From assembly GCF_003790525.1 (NCBI RefSeq), contig NZ_CP033635.1: DNA of 64,000 nucleotides. One strand, written 5' to 3'. Made by a program: the position numbers and the translations under genes. Positions within the stretch are counted from its first letter, which is position 1, and every line of letters begins with the position of its first letter. Below, piece by piece: positions 9,252-60,354 of this stretch. Origin of the DNA: Escherichia coli. Lineage in GTDB: Bacteria > Pseudomonadota > Gammaproteobacteria > Enterobacterales > Enterobacteriaceae. The notes under the pieces were generated by a model that ran no database searches, was not told the origin of the DNA, and was given only the letters and a program-made list of their open reading frames with translations.

Positions 9252-9488
9252 ATGTTGACCTCAATGACAGGTCACGACAGCGTATTGCTGCGTGCCGACG
9301 ATCCCCTGATCGACATGAACTACATCACCAGCTTCACTGGTATGACCGACAAATGGTTTTACAAGCTGATCAGTGAAGGCCATTTCCCTAAACCCATCAA
9401 ACTGGGGCGCAGCAGCCGCTGGTACAAAAGTGAAGTGGAGCAGTGGATGCAGCAACGAATCGAGGCATCACGAGGGGCAGCAGCATGA
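9252..9488 (+). CDS. AlpA-family phage/island transcriptional regulator
   Basis: 78 aa. GMTDKWFYKLISEGHFPKPIKLGRSSRWYKSEVEQW is the classic AlpA/MerR-like HTH signature. Confidence 0.85.
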   Translation: MLTSMTGHDSVLLRADDPLIDMNYITSFTGMTDKWFYKLISEGHFPKPIKLGRSSRWYKSEVEQWMQQRIEASRGAAA

Positions 9489-49735: not shown

Positions 49736-50089
49736 ATGGGATTTTGGGATGCTATAATGGGATTCGGTAAGCTTGCTTCTAATGCTGCTGCTGAAACGAT
49801 GAAAAAAGTCAATTTCAATGTGTGGGATAAAATAAAATCATCTCCGGTAGAAAGAATTAACGATTTTTATAACCAAAATAATACATCTGAGTATAATCGG
49901 CCAGCATACAGAGGATTGGCTATTGCTGCTCTATGTTTTAGGGGGGATTGGAGCGGGGAGCGTTTATGGCGTGAAGATCAGGAGGCTGCTAATTGGTTAA
50001 AGAATTTTAGAATAAAAATTTCACTGGATACATGTGATTCTGCAGATGAACTACGTAAAATAATCGATCGTCTTACAGAACTGAATTGA
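49736..50089 (+). CDS. hypothetical protein (117 aa), cassette gene A
   Basis: ATG after AAGGTGA. AT-rich. No recognisable motif. Confidence 0.55.
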   Translation: MGFWDAIMGFGKLASNAAAETMKKVNFNVWDKIKSSPVERINDFYNQNNTSEYNRPAYRGLAIAALCFRGDWSGERLWREDQEAANWLKNFRIKISLDTCDSADELRKIIDRLTELN

Positions 50090-50178
50090 TTACTGGAGGT
50101 GAAGTTATTTTTATAGGGATAAGTTGAAAATATTTATATGCCCTGTAAGTGTTATTTATATATCGAGAGCGTGAGCCA

Positions 50179-50379
50179 ATGGTCTTTCTTCGACCACCTA
50201 CTACATTTATCTGTATGAATTGTCAATGGAGTAAAACTATTATTCATGTGAACTGTACAACAGGATTTTATGAATGTCCTGTGTGTGGAGAGAAAGTTAT
50301 TTATAAACGTAAGGCTACGATTACAGAAAATCTGTTTTCCAGAGTAATGCAATTCTTTCTTAAAAATCATAATATTTGA
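50179..50379 (+). CDS. small 4-Cys zinc-ribbon protein (66 aa), cassette gene B
   Basis: CMNC...(19 aa)...CPVC pattern. The start at 50179 is chosen because it retains both Cys pairs; the track ORF starts at 50149. Confidence 0.5.
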   Translation: MVFLRPPTTFICMNCQWSKTIIHVNCTTGFYECPVCGEKVIYKRKATITENLFSRVMQFFLKNHNI

Positions 50380-50460
50380 TTGATAATAATAATTGTGTCC
50401 CGATGTCTGGCGGAGATAGTTTTTGGAAAGTGATTGTGAAATTTTTAGGTTTTTTGTTGT

Positions 50461-51117
50461 ATGACTGATAATGAAAATATTCTCACACCATCAAAAATCA
50501 TAAAATTTCTGGATTACGCTTATGAAAAATCCATCGATGGTATTGGTATCCCGGGGATAGATACGGCACATAGTCTTGCGGAAAGTTATCTGAAAACGGG
50601 TAGTAGTTTAAAAGAACAGATAAATAGCCTTATTCGATGGCAGAATACCAAGTCTGCCACATCAGGTTTTCTTACTGGTCTTGGAGGAATTATTACATTA
50701 CCAGTAACTATACCGACCAATATTTCAAGTGTCCTTTTCATTCAGGTCAGGATGGTAGCATCTATTGCGATCATGTGTGGTCAGGATATTCGTGATGATA
50801 AAGTCAGAACTATTGTTTATACCTGTCTTGTAGGTAATGCTGCGAAAGATATTTTGAAGGAAGCAGGAATTCAGATAGGACAAAGGTTGACAACAAATGC
50901 AATTAGATGTATTAGCAAAGAAATTATTGTAAAGATAAATAAGGCTGTCGGTTTCAGACTGCTTACAAAAACAGGTGCTACTGGTGTTATTAATATGTCA
51001 AAGCTTGTTCCTGTTGTAGGAGGAATCGTTGGTGGTAGTTTTGATGCGATAACAACCAACATCGTTGGTAATTATGCCAGAGATACATTCCTGAGTTTGA
51101 TTGATAATGATTTATAA
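50461..51117 (+). CDS. EcsC-family protein, cassette gene C
   Basis: 218 aa. The Gly-rich amphipathic core ...TSGFLTGLGGIITLPVTIPTNISSVLFIQVRMVASIAIMCGQDIRDD... matches my recollection of PF12787 EcsC proteins. Confidence 0.55.
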   Translation: MTDNENILTPSKIIKFLDYAYEKSIDGIGIPGIDTAHSLAESYLKTGSSLKEQINSLIRWQNTKSATSGFLTGLGGIITLPVTIPTNISSVLFIQVRMVASIAIMCGQDIRDDKVRTIVYTCLVGNAAKDILKEAGIQIGQRLTTNAIRCISKEIIVKINKAVGFRLLTKTGATGVINMSKLVPVVGGIVGGSFDAITTNIVGNYARDTFLSLIDNDL

Positions 51118-51516
51118 AATAAAAGTTTCATAAAAAATAGTATTTTAGGTGTGCTGACGATAGTGGATACTTTAGTATTATTGCTTCAAGTTGCATAATT
51201 TTTAACTAACATTAGGTATGAAATTATCCTGACTGGCGGGTAATACTGCCGCTCAATATGGCAAGGTTGTATTACACTGCAAGGAGAAATTCATCGCATA
51301 TCCTTACCCACAAATTTGGAGGCTATTTTATTTGCCAGTAATAATCATGTTAATCCTGAGAATATAGTTTGATATCATATGGTTAATCATTTATCTTGAT
51401 AGATATCTTCTGGTTTGTATAGGAATTAACTATTGAATATGTCGCCTGAAATCAGAAATCAAAAAATACAAATGACAGTTAACTCCCCACCAACCACTGC
51501 GGTTGGTGGGGAGGAC

Positions 51517-52710
51517 TTATTTCGTTTTTACGTTTTTCTCCATAAGTGAATCAATGTAATCAGCGTACCACTGCATCATTTCACGACGTCCATCCAGATA
51601 TTGCGCATGGTTATAAGTGCCACGCATGACGTTTTTATCAACATGAGCAAGCTGGAGTTCAATCCAGGCTGAGCTGAAATCATGGTCATGGAGAATGGTG
51701 CTGAAGGTATGACGAAATCCGTGGGCTGTTGTCAGGGCATGCCAGCCTGACTGCTCAAGGAATTCATTGATACACTTGCGGTTTCGCGGGAGATCTTTTC
51801 TGAATGCACCAGGAATAATAAAGGCGGAATTACGCGATTCAGTGCGTGTTTTTATCTCCTCCAGTAACGCCAGTACCTGGCGTGAAAGCGGCACAACGTG
51901 CGGTCGTCGCATTTTCATTCTTTCTTTCGGAATAACCCACAGGGCCTCCGTGAAATTAATTTCGTCCCAGGTTGCCAGTCGCAGTTCTCCGGTGCGAACA
52001 GCAGTCAGAACCAGCATCTGCGTTGCCAGCGACATCAGATTTTCGGATGCCGTTATCTGATGCATGAAAGCTCCCATCTGTTCTTCAGAAAGCGTCCTGC
52101 GCTGTTGTTTTTCAGGAGGAAGCAGTACCCCGCTGAGTGTCGATGCCGGATTAACGGTAGCACGTCCTGTTGCTATGGCATAATCAAAAACCTGCGCACA
52201 GAGCTGGCGTGTTTTACGCAGTGCTTCAAGTTTTCCCTGTTCTTCTATAGTCCTCAGAACGTTCAGTATTTCCATGGGGCGGATCCCGGTCACAGGACGG
52301 TTTCCAAGAGCAGGGAAAACATGATTTTCAAGTCTTGCACGCTGATCTGCCTGGTAACCTGTTGTCCATCGACGTGCCATATGGGTAAGCAGCTCCTCTG
52401 CAATGGTGCGAAATGTGCAGGCCATACTTTCCCTGATGGCAAGTTTTCGCGCCTGTTTTTCATACGACGGATCTTTACCTTCAGCCAGAAGTTTCCGTGC
52501 TTCATCCCGCTTCTGACGAGCCTGAGCCAGTGATATGTCAGGATAGACACCAATCACCAGTTTCTTTTCCTTACCGGCAAAGCGGTACTTCAGATTCCAG
52601 TAACGGGCACCGGATTTTTTGACAAGAAGATAAAGGCCCTGACCGTCAGAAAGTTTGTAATCCCTGTCAGCAGGTTTAGCCGACTCAATTTGTCGAACAG
52701 TAAGTGGCAT
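51517..52710 (-). CDS. P4-type tyrosine integrase (DUF4102 arm-binding N-terminus plus catalytic core)
   Basis: 397 aa. N-terminal LTVRQIESAKPADRDYKLSDGQGLYLLV, and catalytic RTGELR...HGFRHTF...RGTY. Confidence 0.92.
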   Translation of the reverse strand: MPLTVRQIESAKPADRDYKLSDGQGLYLLVKKSGARYWNLKYRFAGKEKKLVIGVYPDISLAQARQKRDEARKLLAEGKDPSYEKQARKLAIRESMACTFRTIAEELLTHMARRWTTGYQADQRARLENHVFPALGNRPVTGIRPMEILNVLRTIEEQGKLEALRKTRQLCAQVFDYAIATGRATVNPASTLSGVLLPPEKQQRRTLSEEQMGAFMHQITASENLMSLATQMLVLTAVRTGELRLATWDEINFTEALWVIPKERMKMRRPHVVPLSRQVLALLEEIKTRTESRNSAFIIPGAFRKDLPRNRKCINEFLEQSGWHALTTAHGFRHTFSTILHDHDFSSAWIELQLAHVDKNVMRGTYNHAQYLDGRREMMQWYADYIDSLMEKNVKTK

Positions 52711-52961
52711 GATGTTACCCCTGCAATGTAGCCCCCATAATAGCCCCCAAAATCATCTTGATGTTCATGGAATATGATTTACCCCCAGAGAGAAGGAATT
52801 TCTTATGATACCTTATTTCAAAGGGGGTTAAAGGGGGAGGGGTTATCTCTGTTGAAATCAGTTGATATCAATAGATCCTCCCCAGAGGGGCGAGGGGACC
52901 GTTCGAACTCGTATTTGACTTTGTCAACAATAATAAAGGGAGCTTTCGCTCCCTTGTTAGA

Positions 52962-54047
52962 TTACGATTTTCTCATTAACAGCCACAGGCTGATTAAGAA
53001 GAAGCTGGCGCTTGGCAACAGTGCGCCGATGATCGGCGGGATGCCATAAACCAACGTCAGCGGGCCGAAGATCTGGTCCAGTACGTAGAAGACAAAACCG
53101 AAGCTGATACCGGTGACCACACGCACGCCCATCGGTACGCTACGCAGTGGGCCAAAGATAAACGACAGCGCCATCAGCATCATCACCGCCACGGATAGCG
53201 GCTGGAAGATTTTGCTCCACATGTTGAGCTGATAACGTCCGGCATCCTGACCGCTCGACTTCAGATACTTCACATAGTTGTGCAAACCACTGATGGAGAG
53301 TGCATCCGGGTCCAGCGCCACCACGCCCAGTTTGTCTGGCGTGAGGTTGGTTTTCCAGGTGCCGCTCACCGTCTGCGAACCGGTGATCTGTTTCGGATTG
53401 GTCAGATCAGATTCATCAACCTGCGACAGACGCCAGACTTTATGTTCCGGGTCAAACTTCGCGGTAGCGGCATAACGTACGGATTGCAGACGACGATTCT
53501 CGTTAAAGGCATAAATACTGATGCCACCTAACTCTTCGTCACCTTTAACCCGCTCAATGTAGACGAAGTTGTTGCCATCTTTCGCCCATAAGCCTTGCTG
53601 AGTGGAGAGCAACGAGCCGCCGTACATCGCCTGCGCACGGTAGTTACGCGCCATCTGCTCGCCCTGCGGCGCGACCCATTCACCAATCGCCATCGTCAGC
53701 AAGACCAGCGGAATGGCGGTTTTCATCACCGACAGCGCCACCTGCATACGGGTAAAACCAGAAGCCTGCATGACTACCAGTTCGCTGCGCTGCGCCAGCA
53801 TCCCAAGACCAAGCAACGCCCCAAGCAGAGCCGCCATCGGGAAGAAGATTTGCACATCTTTCGGCACGCTCAGCAAGGTATACATTCCTGCGCCTAACGC
53901 GTCGTAACTCCCCTGCCCGGCTTTTTTCAGCTGATCGACAAACTTGATAATGCCCGACAGCGACACCAGCATGAACAGCGTCATCATGATGGTGGTGAAA
54001 ATAGTTTTACCGATATAGCGGTCAAGTACGCCAAAAGGTTGCATCAC
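52962..54047 (-). CDS. lptG: LPS export ABC permease LptG
   Basis: 361 aa. ATGA overlap with lptF. Core synteny with pepA. Confidence 0.95.
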   Translation of the reverse strand: MMQPFGVLDRYIGKTIFTTIMMTLFMLVSLSGIIKFVDQLKKAGQGSYDALGAGMYTLLSVPKDVQIFFPMAALLGALLGLGMLAQRSELVVMQASGFTRMQVALSVMKTAIPLVLLTMAIGEWVAPQGEQMARNYRAQAMYGGSLLSTQQGLWAKDGNNFVYIERVKGDEELGGISIYAFNENRRLQSVRYAATAKFDPEHKVWRLSQVDESDLTNPKQITGSQTVSGTWKTNLTPDKLGVVALDPDALSISGLHNYVKYLKSSGQDAGRYQLNMWSKIFQPLSVAVMMLMALSFIFGPLRSVPMGVRVVTGISFGFVFYVLDQIFGPLTLVYGIPPIIGALLPSASFFLISLWLLMRKS

Positions 54048-55144
54048 ACCGCTCCTTTACGCGAAAAACTGGCGCGCAGGCGGCGGACCGGCACGGTGTC
54101 CCAAAGGTTGAGAACAATCGCCAAAGCCAGATAAATCAGGTTAACGGTCCACATCCACAGCGTCGGGTCCAGCTTACCTTTACCGCCGTTCGATTTCAGG
54201 GAGGTCTGGATCAGGAAGAACAACAGATACAGCAGCATGGCTGGCAGCATCGATAGTACGCGTCCCTGACGCGGGTTAACCACGCTCAGCGGTACGACCA
54301 TAAGTGCCATCATAAACACGGTGAACACCAACGTGATACGCCAGTTCAGTTCTGCGCGAGCACGATCGGTGTCAGTGTTCCACAATGTGCGCATGTCCAT
54401 CTGGTCGGTATCGTTCGGGTCGAGCGCCACCGCCTGGTGACCAATGATCGCCTGATAATCCTGGAAATCCGTAATGCGGAAATCACGTAACAGTGCAGTG
54501 CCTTCGAAGCGCGTTCCCTGGTTGAGAGTGACGACCTGGGAGCCGTCGCGCAGCTGGGTTAAATGTCCGGAATCGGCCACCACCACAGAAGGTCGTGCAT
54601 TACCTTTTGGTCGAATTTGCGCGAGGAACACATCTTTGAAATCGCTGCCGTCAACGCTTTCGATGAACAGCACCGAGCTGCCATTAGTCGCTTGCTGGAA
54701 TTGCCCTTGCGCAAGCGCCGCCATGCCAGGGTTCGCTTTCGCTTCTGCTAACACTTCATCCTGATGACGCGATGACCACGGTCCCGCCCACATCACGTTA
54801 ACCGCCGCGACGATTGCCGTGAATACCGCAAGGATCATTGCCGCTTTCACCAGCACCGCTTTGCTCAGGCCGCAGGCATGCATTACCGTAATTTCACTTT
54901 CGGTATACAGTTTGCCCAGCGTCATCAGCAGCCCGAGGAACAGGCTTAATGGCAGGATAAGCTGCGCCATTTCCGGCACGCCCAACCCGAGAAGGGAGAG
55001 CACCAGATTCGCCGGAATATCGCCGTCAACCGCTGCGCCGAGGATCCTCACTAACTTTTGACAGAAGAAGATCAAAAGCAAGATGAAGAGTATCGCCAGC
55101 TGGCTTTTGAGCGTCTCCCGCACCAGATATCTTATGATTATCAC
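54044..55144 (-). CDS. lptF: LPS export ABC permease LptF
   Basis: 366 aa, MIIIRYLVRETLKSQLAILFILLLIFF... Divergent from pepA, as in K-12. Confidence 0.95.
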   Translation of the reverse strand: MIIIRYLVRETLKSQLAILFILLLIFFCQKLVRILGAAVDGDIPANLVLSLLGLGVPEMAQLILPLSLFLGLLMTLGKLYTESEITVMHACGLSKAVLVKAAMILAVFTAIVAAVNVMWAGPWSSRHQDEVLAEAKANPGMAALAQGQFQQATNGSSVLFIESVDGSDFKDVFLAQIRPKGNARPSVVVADSGHLTQLRDGSQVVTLNQGTRFEGTALLRDFRITDFQDYQAIIGHQAVALDPNDTDQMDMRTLWNTDTDRARAELNWRITLVFTVFMMALMVVPLSVVNPRQGRVLSMLPAMLLYLLFFLIQTSLKSNGGKGKLDPTLWMWTVNLIYLALAIVLNLWDTVPVRRLRASFSRKGAV

Positions 55145-55407
55145 TTTAAATACGCCCGTAAAAACTCGTCTTTTGCAGGATTTTAGCTTGTTTCATGGCT
55201 TAAACGTCATTTATTCTCTTGAGTCGTCGAAATCGTCGCTAAGATAATTATACTCAACGGATTCACCTCTCAGATTTTGTTCTGACGTGCCAATGCCGTA
55301 ATAACGTTAAGATTAACACGAAGTCATCGCAACAGCGGACATGAGTTACGAAAGCTTGCAATTCTATCTGTAGCCACCGCCGTTGTCTTTAAGATTCAGG
55401 AGCGTAG

Positions 55408-56922
<1,515 letters not shown>

Positions 56923-57055
56923 GTTTGCGTTTTACCCTCACCCTAACCCTCTCCCTAAGGGAGGGGGAACCGATCGAGCGCAATAGAAATTCATTGCTCA
57001 TCTTTCAGGGTGAGGAATGCAGCAATATTTAAATCCACCACAAGAAGCCCCATAT

Positions 57056-57499
57056 ATGAAAAACGCAACGTTCTACCTTCTGGACAATGACACCACCGTC
57101 GATGGCTTAAGCGCCGTTGAGCAACTGGTGTGTGAAATTGCCGCAGAACGTTGGCGCAGCGGTAAGCGCGTACTCATCGCCTGTGAAGATGAAAAGCAGG
57201 CTTACCGGCTGGATGAAGCCCTGTGGGCGCGTCCGGCAGAAAGCTTTGTCCCGCATAATTTAGCGGGAGAAGGACCGCGCGGCGGTGCGCCGGTGGAGAT
57301 CGCCTGGCCGCAAAAACGCAGCAGCAGCCCGCGCGATATATTGATTAGTCTGCGAACAAGCTTTGCAGATTTTGCCACCGCTTTCACAGAAGTGGTAGAC
57401 TTCGTTCCTTATGAAGATTCTCTGAAACAACTGGCGCGCGAACGCTATAAAGCCTACCGCGTGGCTGGTTTCAACCTGAATACGGCAACCTGGAAATAA
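57056..57499 (+). CDS. holC: DNA polymerase III chi subunit
   Basis: ATG 57056 gives [11 protein letters not shown]... (147 aa). Its stop overlaps the valS ATG. Confidence 0.93.
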
Positions 57500-60354
57500 T
57501 GGAAAAGACATATAACCCACAAGATATCGAACAGCCGCTTTACGAGCACTGGGAAAAGCAGGGCTACTTTAAGCCTAATGGCGATGAAAGCCAGGAAAGT
57601 TTCTGCATCATGATCCCGCCGCCGAACGTCACCGGCAGTTTGCATATGGGTCACGCCTTCCAGCAAACCATCATGGATACCATGATCCGCTATCAGCGTA
57701 TGCAGGGTAAAAACACCCTGTGGCAGGTCGGTACTGACCACGCCGGGATCGCTACCCAGATGGTCGTTGAGCGCAAGATTGCCGCAGAAGAAGGTAAAAC
57801 CCGTCACGATTACGGCCGCGAAGCTTTCATCGACAAAATCTGGGAATGGAAAGCGGAATCCGGCGGCACCATTACCCGTCAGATGCGTCGTCTCGGCAAC
57901 TCCGTGGACTGGGAGCGTGAACGCTTCACGATGGACGAAGGCCTGTCCAATGCAGTGAAAGAAGTTTTCGTTCGTCTGTATAAAGAAGACCTGATTTACC
58001 GTGGCAAACGCCTGGTAAACTGGGACCCGAAACTGCGCACCGCTATCTCCGACCTGGAAGTGGAAAACCGCGAATCGAAAGGTTCGATGTGGCACATCCG
58101 CTATCCGCTGGCTGACGGCGCGAAAACCGCAGACGGTAAAGATTATCTGGTGGTTGCGACTACCCGTCCGGAAACCCTGCTGGGCGATACCGGCGTGGCC
58201 GTTAACCCGGAAGATCCGCGTTATAAAGATCTGATTGGCAAATATGTCATTCTGCCGCTGGTTAACCGTCGTATTCCGATCGTTGGCGACGAACACGCCG
58301 ACATGGAAAAAGGCACTGGCTGCGTGAAGATCACCCCAGCGCACGACTTTAACGACTATGAAGTCGGTAAACGTCACGCCCTGCCGATGATCAACATCCT
58401 GACCTTTGACGGTGATATCCGTGAAAGCGCCCAGGTGTTCGATACCAAAGGTAACGAATCTGACGTTTATTCCAGCGAAATCCCGGCAGAGTTCCAGAAA
58501 CTCGAGCGTTTTGCTGCACGTAAAGCCGTCGTTGCTGCGGTTGACGCGCTCGGCCTGCTGGAAGAAATTAAACCGCACGACCTGACCGTTCCTTACGGCG
58601 ACCGTGGCGGCGTGGTTATCGAACCGATGCTGACCGACCAGTGGTACGTGCGTGCCGATGTACTGGCGAAACCGGCAGTTGAAGCGGTTGAGAACGGCGA
58701 CATTCAGTTCGTACCGAAGCAGTACGAAAACATGTACTTCTCCTGGATGCGCGATATTCAGGACTGGTGTATCTCTCGTCAGCTATGGTGGGGTCACCGT
58801 ATCCCGGCATGGTATGACGAAGCGGGTAACGTTTATGTTGGCCGCAACGAAGACGAAGTGCGTAAAGAAAATAACCTCGGTGCTGATGTTGTCCTGCGTC
58901 AGGACGAAGACGTTCTCGACACCTGGTTCTCTTCTGCGCTGTGGACCTTCTCTACCCTTGGCTGGCCGGAAAATACCGACGCCCTGCGTCAGTTCCACCC
59001 AACCAGCGTGATGGTATCTGGTTTCGACATCATCTTCTTCTGGATTGCCCGCATGATCATGATGACCATGCACTTCATCAAAGATGAAAATGGCAAACCG
59101 CAGGTGCCGTTCCACACTGTTTACATGACCGGTCTGATTCGTGACGACGAAGGCCAGAAGATGTCCAAATCCAAGGGTAACGTTATCGACCCGCTGGATA
59201 TGGTTGACGGTATTTCGCTGCCAGAACTGCTGGAAAAACGTACCGGCAATATGATGCAGCCGCAGCTGGCGGACAAAATCCGTAAGCGCACCGAGAAACA
59301 GTTCCCGAACGGCATTGAGCCGCACGGCACCGATGCCCTGCGCTTCACCCTGGCGGCGCTGGCTTCTACCGGTCGTGACATCAACTGGGATATGAAGCGT
59401 CTGGAAGGCTACCGTAACTTCTGTAACAAGCTGTGGAACGCCAGCCGCTTTGTGCTGATGAACACAGAAGGTCAGGATTGCGGCTTCAACGGCGGTGAAA
59501 TGACGCTGTCGCTGGCGGACCGCTGGATTCTGGCGGAGTTCAACCAGACCATCAAAGCGTACCGCGAAGCGCTGGACAGCTTCCGTTTCGATATTGCCGC
59601 AGGCATTCTGTATGAATTCACCTGGAACCAGTTCTGTGACTGGTATCTGGAGCTGACCAAGCCGGTAATGAACGGTGGCACCGAAGCCGAACTGCGCGGT
59701 ACTCGCCATACGCTGGTGACTGTACTGGAAGGTCTGCTGCGCCTCGCGCATCCGATCATTCCGTTCATCACCGAAACCATCTGGCAGCGTGTGAAAGTAC
59801 TTTGCGGTATCACTGCCGACACCATCATGCTGCAACCGTTCCCGCAGTACGATGCGTCTCAGGTCGATGAAGCCGCACTGGCCGACACCGAGTGGCTGAA
59901 GCAGGCGATCGTTGCGGTACGTAACATCCGTGCAGAAATGAACATCGCACCGGGTAAACCGCTGGAGCTGCTGCTGCGTGGTTGCAGCGCGGATGCAGAA
60001 CGTCGCGTAAATGAAAACCGTGGCTTCCTGCAAACGCTGGCGCGTCTGGAAAGTATCACCGTGCTGCCTGCCGATGACAAAGGTCCGGTTTCCGTTACCA
60101 AGATCATCGACGGCGCAGAGCTGCTGATCCCGATGGCTGGCCTCATCAACAAAGAAGATGAGCTGGCGCGTCTGGCGAAAGAAGTGGCGAAGATTGAAGG
60201 TGAAATCAGCCGTATCGAGAACAAACTGGCGAACGAAGGCTTTGTCGCCCGCGCACCGGAAGCGGTCATCGCGAAAGAGCGTGAGAAGCTGGAAGGCTAT
60301 GCAGAAGCGAAAGCGAAGCTGATTGAACAGCAGGCTGTTATCGCCGCGCTGTAA
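57499..60354 (+). CDS. valS: valyl-tRNA synthetase
   Basis: 951 aa. HMGH and KMSKS motifs, with a C-terminal coiled coil. Confidence 0.98.

Follow-up and report, generated by a model that had tools for sequence, protein, structure and literature searches.

The integrase-lptG junction of an Escherichia coli genomic island as a probable attachment site within a BoxC repeat

The integrase gene and the spacer next to lptG

In the window (the whole stretch of DNA analysed, 64,000 nucleotides long), an integrase gene lies a short distance from lptG, and both genes lie on the minus strand. The features used below are the following, with the strand given where one applies.

1-52890: part of the genomic island inside the window; its left (far) end lies beyond the window start, and DNA identity with the islands at other loci stops at the core
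9252-9488, plus strand: 78-aa ORF, AlpA-family small DNA-binding protein (Pfam Phage_AlpA, E = 2e-10)
51517-52710, minus strand: P4-type (DUF4102) tyrosine integrase, 397 aa, apparently intact (Pfam and catalytic motifs)
52729-52749: direct repeat of TAGCCCCCA (two copies at 12-bp spacing), 19-39 bp ahead of the int start; conserved, on both arms
52780-52787: degenerate third copy TACCCCCA, a weak candidate site; kept in the 84-98% clades only, the others having ACATCCA or ACGTCCA
52821-52837: AAGGGGG twice, inverted G5 copies; in the 84-98% clades, degraded in the 79-92% clades and beyond
52850-52871: inverted-repeat remnant CTGTTGA-N13-TCAACAG, about 10 bp from the core; TGTTGA invariant in 10 of 10 arms
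52877-52890: putative recombination core CCTCCCC-AGA-GGGG, crossover region; island to the left, host to the right
52891-52902: right arm of the BoxC in the host DNA that the insertion interrupted, CGAGGGGACCGT; identical to the SMS-3-5 empty site, fits the BoxC/TMECO consensus (PMC4666352)
52936-52955, minus strand: intrinsic terminator hairpin of lptG (terminator scan); host DNA, also in K-12 and SMS-3-5
52962-54047, minus strand: lptG (ORF list), 98% identical to K-12
56935-56972: intact unoccupied BoxC variant between pepA and holC, CCCTCACCCTAACCCTCTCCC-TAA-GGGAGGGGGAACCG (from the sequence)

The integrase is a typical P4/CP4-family protein. Pfam recognised an Arm-DNA-bind_3/DUF4102 domain (residues 3-87, E = 4.2e-28), a Phage_int_M domain (E = 8.9e-29) and a Phage_integrase domain (E = 7.9e-21), the N-terminus matches PDB entries 3ju0 and 3jtz, which are solved structures of arm-binding domains from CP4-like integrases, and the R..K..HxxR..H..Y motifs can be read in the translation (AVRTGE, HGFRHT, LAH, RGTY). 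The exact protein was found in 257 blocks of the public assembly collection; in the contigs inspected it sits mostly at glnH, and in one case beside an ArsP_1 permease gene. Full-length relatives with at least 79% DNA identity are present in about 90 of the 5426 complete genomes.

The island itself resembles that of strain CM2, described below. Positions 6-2011 of the window match the DUF932/antirestriction/RadC module of the CM2 island, 4-5 kb from its far end, and the remainder of the window's island consists of CM2 island segments in mosaic arrangement. The CP4-like end module is DUF932-antirestriction-RadC-YeeU/CbtA-DUF4942, the last 4-5 kb of which fall outside the window. The presence of AlpA in the window, and of the full module up to the far end in the annotation of CM2, matches the backbone of CP4-like pathogenicity islands. 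By its family, the AlpA-like protein is a candidate excision (directionality) factor. A segment of ~2.2 kb, which lies beside int in CM2 and most relatives and carries a tetratricopeptide-repeat gene and ISAs1 transposase fragments, is absent from the window's island (window 51319-51431 compared to 3826-6000 of the relative-locus extract).

The spacer runs from 52711 to 52961, i.e. 251 bp between the integrase ORF (51517-52710, minus strand) and the end of the lptG ORF at 52962. The two copies of TAGCCCCCA (52729-52737 and 52741-52749) are the only ones in 64 kb, where 0.39 are expected, and two copies were reached in 4 of 100 shuffles. A C5 run is found at 52782-52786, the motif AAGGGGG at 52821-52827 and 52831-52837, and the hairpin CCTCCCC-AGA-GGGGCGAGG begins at 52877; CTCCCCNNNGGGG is present once in the window, at 52878. 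With five C5/G5 runs in 251 bp the spacer reaches the peak density of the window, which was equalled in 18 of 20000 shuffles. An earlier note made from the letters alone had reported these motifs, and each is present where it had placed it. That note had also seen no tRNA in the spacer; ARAGORN, which detected neither a tRNA nor a tmRNA in the whole window, agrees, as does a permissive Rfam scan of positions 50000-58000, whose sole match is unrelated and lies antisense inside pepA. This match (Ysr276, Yersinia sRNA 276, full-length, 182.9 bits, 55969-56163, minus strand, antisense in the pepA coding region) may reflect only pepA's own conservation. No sigma-70 promoter for int was detected by a simple promoter scan of 52600-53000. 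As annotated in CM2 and K-12, lptG is one codon shorter than the ORF listed here.

The insertion site in other genomes

Among 5426 complete E. coli genomes, the int-lptG junction was found only in CM2 (1/5426). There, it is one end of a ~92 kb insert, whose opposite end abuts yjgR; beyond yjgR, intact copies of idnR, idnT, idnO, idnD, idnK, ahr and leuX follow, and next to leuX lies a separate integrase remnant. The K-12 order lptG, yjgR, idn genes, ahr, leuX, which the earlier note had given, is correct, and yjgR is not in the window because the window starts inside the island. The second junction of the window's island is deduced from CM2, its own far end being outside the window. With a slash marking the break, the CM2 far junction reads CCCCTCACCCTAACCCTCTCCCC-ATA-GGGG/AATGGTG, or at greater length yjgR-stop...GCCCCTCACCCTAACCCTCTCCCC-ATA-GGGG/AATGGTGAAAATTC, and the near (int-side) junction reads ...ATAGATCCTCCCC-AAA-GGGG/CGAGGGGACCGTTCGAAC. 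Once joined, the CM2 host flanks (401 bp) form a perfect BoxC and match SMS-3-5 at 400 of 401 positions, and this rebuilt empty site is at least 99% identical in 48 genomes. The yjgR-lptG spacer of K-12 has a REP element in place of the BoxC.

The consensus of the repeat known as BoxC, PIT or TMECO is CCCTCNCCC-N3-6-GGGNGAGGG-N3-GGGNGAGGG (Holder et al. 2015, PMC4666352). The restored site, CCCCTCACCC-TAA-CCCTCTCCCC-AAA-GGGGCGAGGG, is its reverse complement, and the island splits the central hairpin loop. Empty sites of SMS-3-5 and K-12 fit the consensus; the window holds the right arm and a hybrid core only. The breakpoint at lptG-yjgR is precise, with an empty site in SMS-3-5, and the 13-bp core recurs at the far end in CM2 and in the relatives. 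In all junctions compared, island identity ends at the core and the same 13 bp are repeated at the far end. ARAGORN found no tRNA in the window or at 18 related loci, the direct repeat being CTCCCCNNNGGGG. We conclude from these comparisons that 52711-52890 is very probably the attR, comprising the core and the arm next to the integrase, of a large mobile genomic island that targets the BoxC centre.

The same position in the BoxC core is used at eight further loci, by islands whose integrase is 97-98% identical in DNA or identical in protein:

ygfF/gcvP
frlR/yhfS
fabI/ycjD
tusA/zntA
ypfG
glnP/glnH
the ArsP_1 permease-gene site
a metagenome-contig site

The far ends abut the K-12 neighbours ygfF, frlR, fabI, tusA and glnP, and these are therefore clean insertions. 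Islands with both ends mapped in one strain measure 75-116 kb. At the ycjD and glnH sites two strains each were found, and the neighbouring island genes are the same (97-98% DNA-identity set). K-12 has an unbroken BoxC at four of the occupied loci. Arms 100% identical to that of the window are found at glnH and at the ArsP_1 site, with a BoxC arm beyond the core in both, and a metagenome junction scan yielded three contigs and one new BoxC locus. The two half-sites of E. coli BoxC differ (CTCTCCCC versus CTCGCCCC), and the island orientation is the same in all cases seen. In the occupied E. coli BoxC sites examined, int is codirectional with the host gene that ends (3′) just past the single-arm side.

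A C4-N3-G4 centre is present in about 14 of the 23 K-12 BoxC copies (counted from Table 1 of PMC4666352). The hairpin in the spacer had been noticed earlier to resemble an element after pepA, and the two do belong to one repeat family; the centre of the pepA-holC copy is C3-TAA-G3, not C4/G4, and does not match CTCCCCNNNGGGG. This C3/G3 centre resembles the cores of the Enterobacter and Serratia relatives (see below), not the C4/G4 of the E. coli islands.

Two genomes present unusual arrangements. In Br_112_kylling (NZ_CP182371.1) the ends of the glnH/glnP island lie at 2.567 Mb (int) and 4.195 Mb (far), in opposite orientation and 1.63 Mb apart. An integrase-driven rearrangement between BoxC copies was considered and rejected, as both ends have kept their own flanks, glnP in the case of the far end, which points to a large inversion that split the island. 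In 23CRST013 (NZ_AP045773.1) three far-end arm copies were found, the best one 2 Mb from the integrase end at ypfG; there may be several islands of the BoxC-targeting family in this strain, or a rearrangement.

Integrase clades with 84% and 79% DNA identity sit in a 15-bp perfect palindrome, CTCCCCGCCGGGGAG, inside ulaE. In K-12 this site is GCG-CTCCCCGCCGGGGAG-TGC, with no BoxC around it, and the ulaE islands are found in both orientations. Judging from this comparison, the minimal target is the palindrome. The ulaE coding sequence is interrupted at codon ~15 in roughly 65 of the 5426 complete genomes, ST69 strains included, and the glnHPQ operon is split between glnH and glnP by islands of the BoxC-targeting family.

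Arm repeats, crossover and competing explanations

Ten arms, from integrase clades 65-98% identical, were aligned. The invariant blocks are the T.GCCCC...GCCCCC pair, a TTGAT block, the TGTTGA half-repeat and the CCTCCC core. Across the 65-98% clades the GCCCC cores of both TAGCCCCCA repeats do not change, while neighbouring bases vary, and in every island examined the TAGCCCCCA pair is found again ~70 bp in from the far end. The tRNA-Phe integrase gene, too, has a GCCCCCA pair beside it. By this conservation, the TAGCCCCCA pairs are probably arm-type binding sites of the integrase. The int gene of phage P4 is autoregulated, and the near-arm pair is possibly also used in int autoregulation here, which is plausible because the pair lies 19-39 bp upstream of the start codon. 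The CTGTTGA inverted repeat is possibly a site for an accessory protein. Both the window's clade and the 84% clade lack 10 bp of its right half, and show no obvious sign of reduced mobility.

The three nucleotides at the loop of the core help to place the crossover. In GPEC1040 the far end has AGA and the int end AAA, K-12 having AAA at the same site; in CM2 the far end has ATA and the int end again AAA, as has the same site in SMS-3-5. The pre-insertion triplets in both cases are those of proxy strains (K-12 and SMS-3-5). In PKF11 the far end has GCC, the target's own triplet, and the int end GGC. The ulaE int-end junction shows, in one orientation, GGC, GCC or GCT depending on the strain. 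In the window the int-end triplet is AGA, as in the identical arms at two other loci, and the triplet of the empty lptG site is AAA. Either end of the island can thus carry the target's own triplet, an arrangement that fits a recombination overlap with tolerated mismatch and not a target-site duplication. Genome comparison shows that insertion is precise, that the core is shared, that many sites are used independently and that the repeats are conserved. The precise insertions at many sites are consistent, by comparison, with site-specific integration and excision being catalysed by the window integrase.

The earlier note had proposed either a non-tRNA attachment site, which the BoxC centre now provides, or a deletion of the DNA from yjgR to the tRNA, which does not hold. 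Under such a deletion, the integrase would be that of an ordinary leuX (tRNA-Leu) island, brought to lptG when the segment with yjgR, the idn genes, ahr and the tRNA itself was lost; in K-12 no tRNA site is nearer than leuX, and the window contains neither yjgR nor a tRNA. However, in CM2 the junction coexists with an intact yjgR-idn-ahr-leuX segment beyond the far end and with a separate integrase remnant at leuX, the empty site that the joined flanks reproduce at 400 of 401 bases exists naturally in other strains, and the same integrase is found at no fewer than 8 other loci without a tRNA; we regard a leuX origin as extremely improbable. Another view would be that BoxC is merely fragile or recombinogenic, and that RecA-mediated or illegitimate recombination between BoxC copies took place with no involvement of the integrase. 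BoxC loci are indeed hypervariable, and form triplexes and hairpins in vitro (PMC4666352), but the island ends carry the 13-bp core only, without the outer BoxC arms, and this is too short for RecA. In addition, the crossover falls within the same few bases in every event, including those in ulaE, where the target is a 15-bp palindrome without BoxC, and the trait tracks one integrase clade across genera. Recombination of this kind is very unlikely.

It is just as unlikely that the island is a transposon-like unit which duplicates a 13-bp target, instead of the product of attP x attB recombination. Empty sites have a single core and occupied ones two, as a duplication would have it, but the two copies often differ in their triplet (AGA/AAA, ATA/AAA, GCC/GGC), which is not expected of a target duplication, and the enzyme, which has an arm-binding domain, is an integrase of the lambda/P4 type, the island carrying arm repeats at both ends. 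For the C5/G5 repeats, arm sites or a structured int leader had been suggested in the earlier note. The first suggestion stands for the TAGCCCCCA pair, present at both ends and in all clades, and fails for the third C5 and the G5 runs, which are limited to the closest clades. The second would have the runs fold into a structured 5′ leader RNA that controls int translation; the C5 and G5 runs are complementary to each other, and all are situated between the core and the start of int, but the predicted fold is no better than that of shuffles (z = -0.63), related clades show eroded G5 runs and no changes that would compensate for this, and the C5 pair is found again at the far end, which has no int gene to regulate. 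We give such a leader a very low probability.

In the reading that we prefer, the P4-type integrase would recombine an island-borne site with the CTCCCC-NNN-GGGG(A/C)G centre of a dispersed BoxC. The reconstructed attP would read ...TAGCCCCCA x2...CTGTTGA..ATAGATCCTCCCC-NNN-GGGGAATGGTG...TAGCCCCCA x2..., and the landing site would be the BoxC copy found between yjgR and lptG in some E. coli lineages. Of this copy, the left two arms would now lie beyond the window, at the island's far end, and the right arm at 52891-52902. The N-terminal domain of the integrase would bind the TAGCCCCCA pairs on both arms; the 3-nt loop would lie inside the strand-exchange overlap, between staggered cuts, with mismatches tolerated and the heteroduplex segregating at replication; and the AlpA-like protein would direct excision.

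Relatives in other genera and known systems

Related integrases are found beyond E. coli, in Enterobacter asburiae (78% identity), Serratia fonticola and E. kobei (68%) and E. ludwigii (65%, at three loci). The Enterobacter and Serratia integrases each follow a protein gene at a distance of 200-250 bp, without a tRNA in the vicinity, and their junctions read ...GATCCTCCC-NNN-GGGAGAGGG, also given as CCTCCC-NNN-GGGAGAGGG; after several of them comes TTA, TTG or TCG followed by GGGTGAGGG, which is BoxC again. A matching far end was found in Lelliottia wanjuensis. It is the only real relative among the 75 matches of a scan of species-representative genomes with TAGCCCCCANNNTAGCCCCC, nearly all of which were in unrelated phyla, ~70 matches being expected by chance (an estimate for 17 specified bases).

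The nearest abundant outgroup is the classical E. coli tRNA-Phe integrase, with 54% identity. Relatives with 55-59% identity occupy other sites that also lack a nearby tRNA, and non-tRNA targets may be common in this part of the integrase family. Those of Salmonella enterica (59%) and E. coli (55%) adjoin an alkA-like gene or follow a CMD-family gene; the sites are not BoxC, and each integrase has its own GCCCCCA-type arm pair. It could well be, though we would put it no higher than an evenly balanced call, that a clade of P4-type integrases in the Enterobacterales (Escherichia, Enterobacter, Serratia, Lelliottia) switched from tRNA genes to BoxC/PIT/TMECO as attB, with virulence and fitness islands of ~100 kb that use many sites (roughly a dozen loci), an orientation fixed at the asymmetric BoxC and free at the perfect palindrome, and mismatches tolerated in the overlap.

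Serving as an island landing pad would give a concrete function to BoxC, which has been known since the 1990s and whose role is still unclear. It would also offer a simple explanation for the variability between strains of BoxC-adjacent loci, accounting, if true, for part of the reported hypervariability. With one island family in many places, the ula and glnHPQ operons among them, host metabolism (ascorbate use and glutamine uptake in the case of these operons) may be affected differently from strain to strain. Island-mapping pipelines that consider tRNA genes only will miss or misplace BoxC islands. As the palindromic target of ~13 bp has about 14 copies in K-12, the integrase could serve as a multi-copy integration tool.

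Part of this picture has precedents. Islands carrying papGII have been located in the gln and ula operons, each site with its own integrase (Biggel et al. 2020, PMC7686366), and the sites of that study, ulaD-ulaE and glnP-glnH, are among the loci described here. The study (PMC7686366) appears to present these loci as insertion sites only, with no target sequence, BoxC link or further loci. The present reading would explain these non-tRNA island sites of invasive uropathogenic E. coli. The ST58 subAB island was examined as a relevant precedent and set aside, since it is located at tRNA-Phe. Four of the occupied sites coincide with entries in Table 1 of Holder et al. (PMC4666352). According to these authors, integrases and transposases are never found near BoxC repeats, and the variability of the loci was ascribed to DNA structure (Holder et al. 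2015, PMC4666352); unlike in that account, the integrase clade described here would use BoxC copies as landing sites. In a literature coverage that is incomplete, and that extended to BoxC, TMECO or PIT in connection with integrases, to islands at lptG/yjgR and to tyrosine recombinases targeting extragenic palindromes, we found no description of the present system and no link between BoxC and an integrase. A BoxC-targeting integrase clade appears not to have been described before.

The closest known systems are the P4/CP4 islands at the tRNA genes pheV, pheU, leuX and selC of E. coli. Their integrases have the same architecture, and they share the backbone of AlpA, DUF932, antirestriction, RadC, YeeU/CbtA and DUF4942 genes, as well as a GCCCCCA-type pair near the int start. 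Unlike them, the islands described here would have as attB a dispersed palindromic repeat, with many loci per integrase.

Several insertion sequences, IS1397, ISKpn1 and IS621 (IS110 family), target REP/BIME palindromes, and so does ISPpu9, also of the IS110 family. They likewise use a dispersed extragenic palindrome as a safe landing site in many copies. They differ in their DDE or DEDD transposases, in their size (~1-2 kb versus ~100 kb) and in the repeat family used. At the junction studied here, the tyrosine integrase is the only recombinase, and the ends are of the attL/attR type with arm repeats, not inverted repeats.

Finally, Tn916, CTnDOT and NBU1 are tyrosine recombinase elements that tolerate heterology in the overlap. 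In these elements, as here, the centre of the core may differ between the two junctions, in agreement with recombination taking place despite mismatches. Their integrases belong to other subfamilies and have looser targets, whereas the C4/G4 half-sites are strictly kept in the islands described here.
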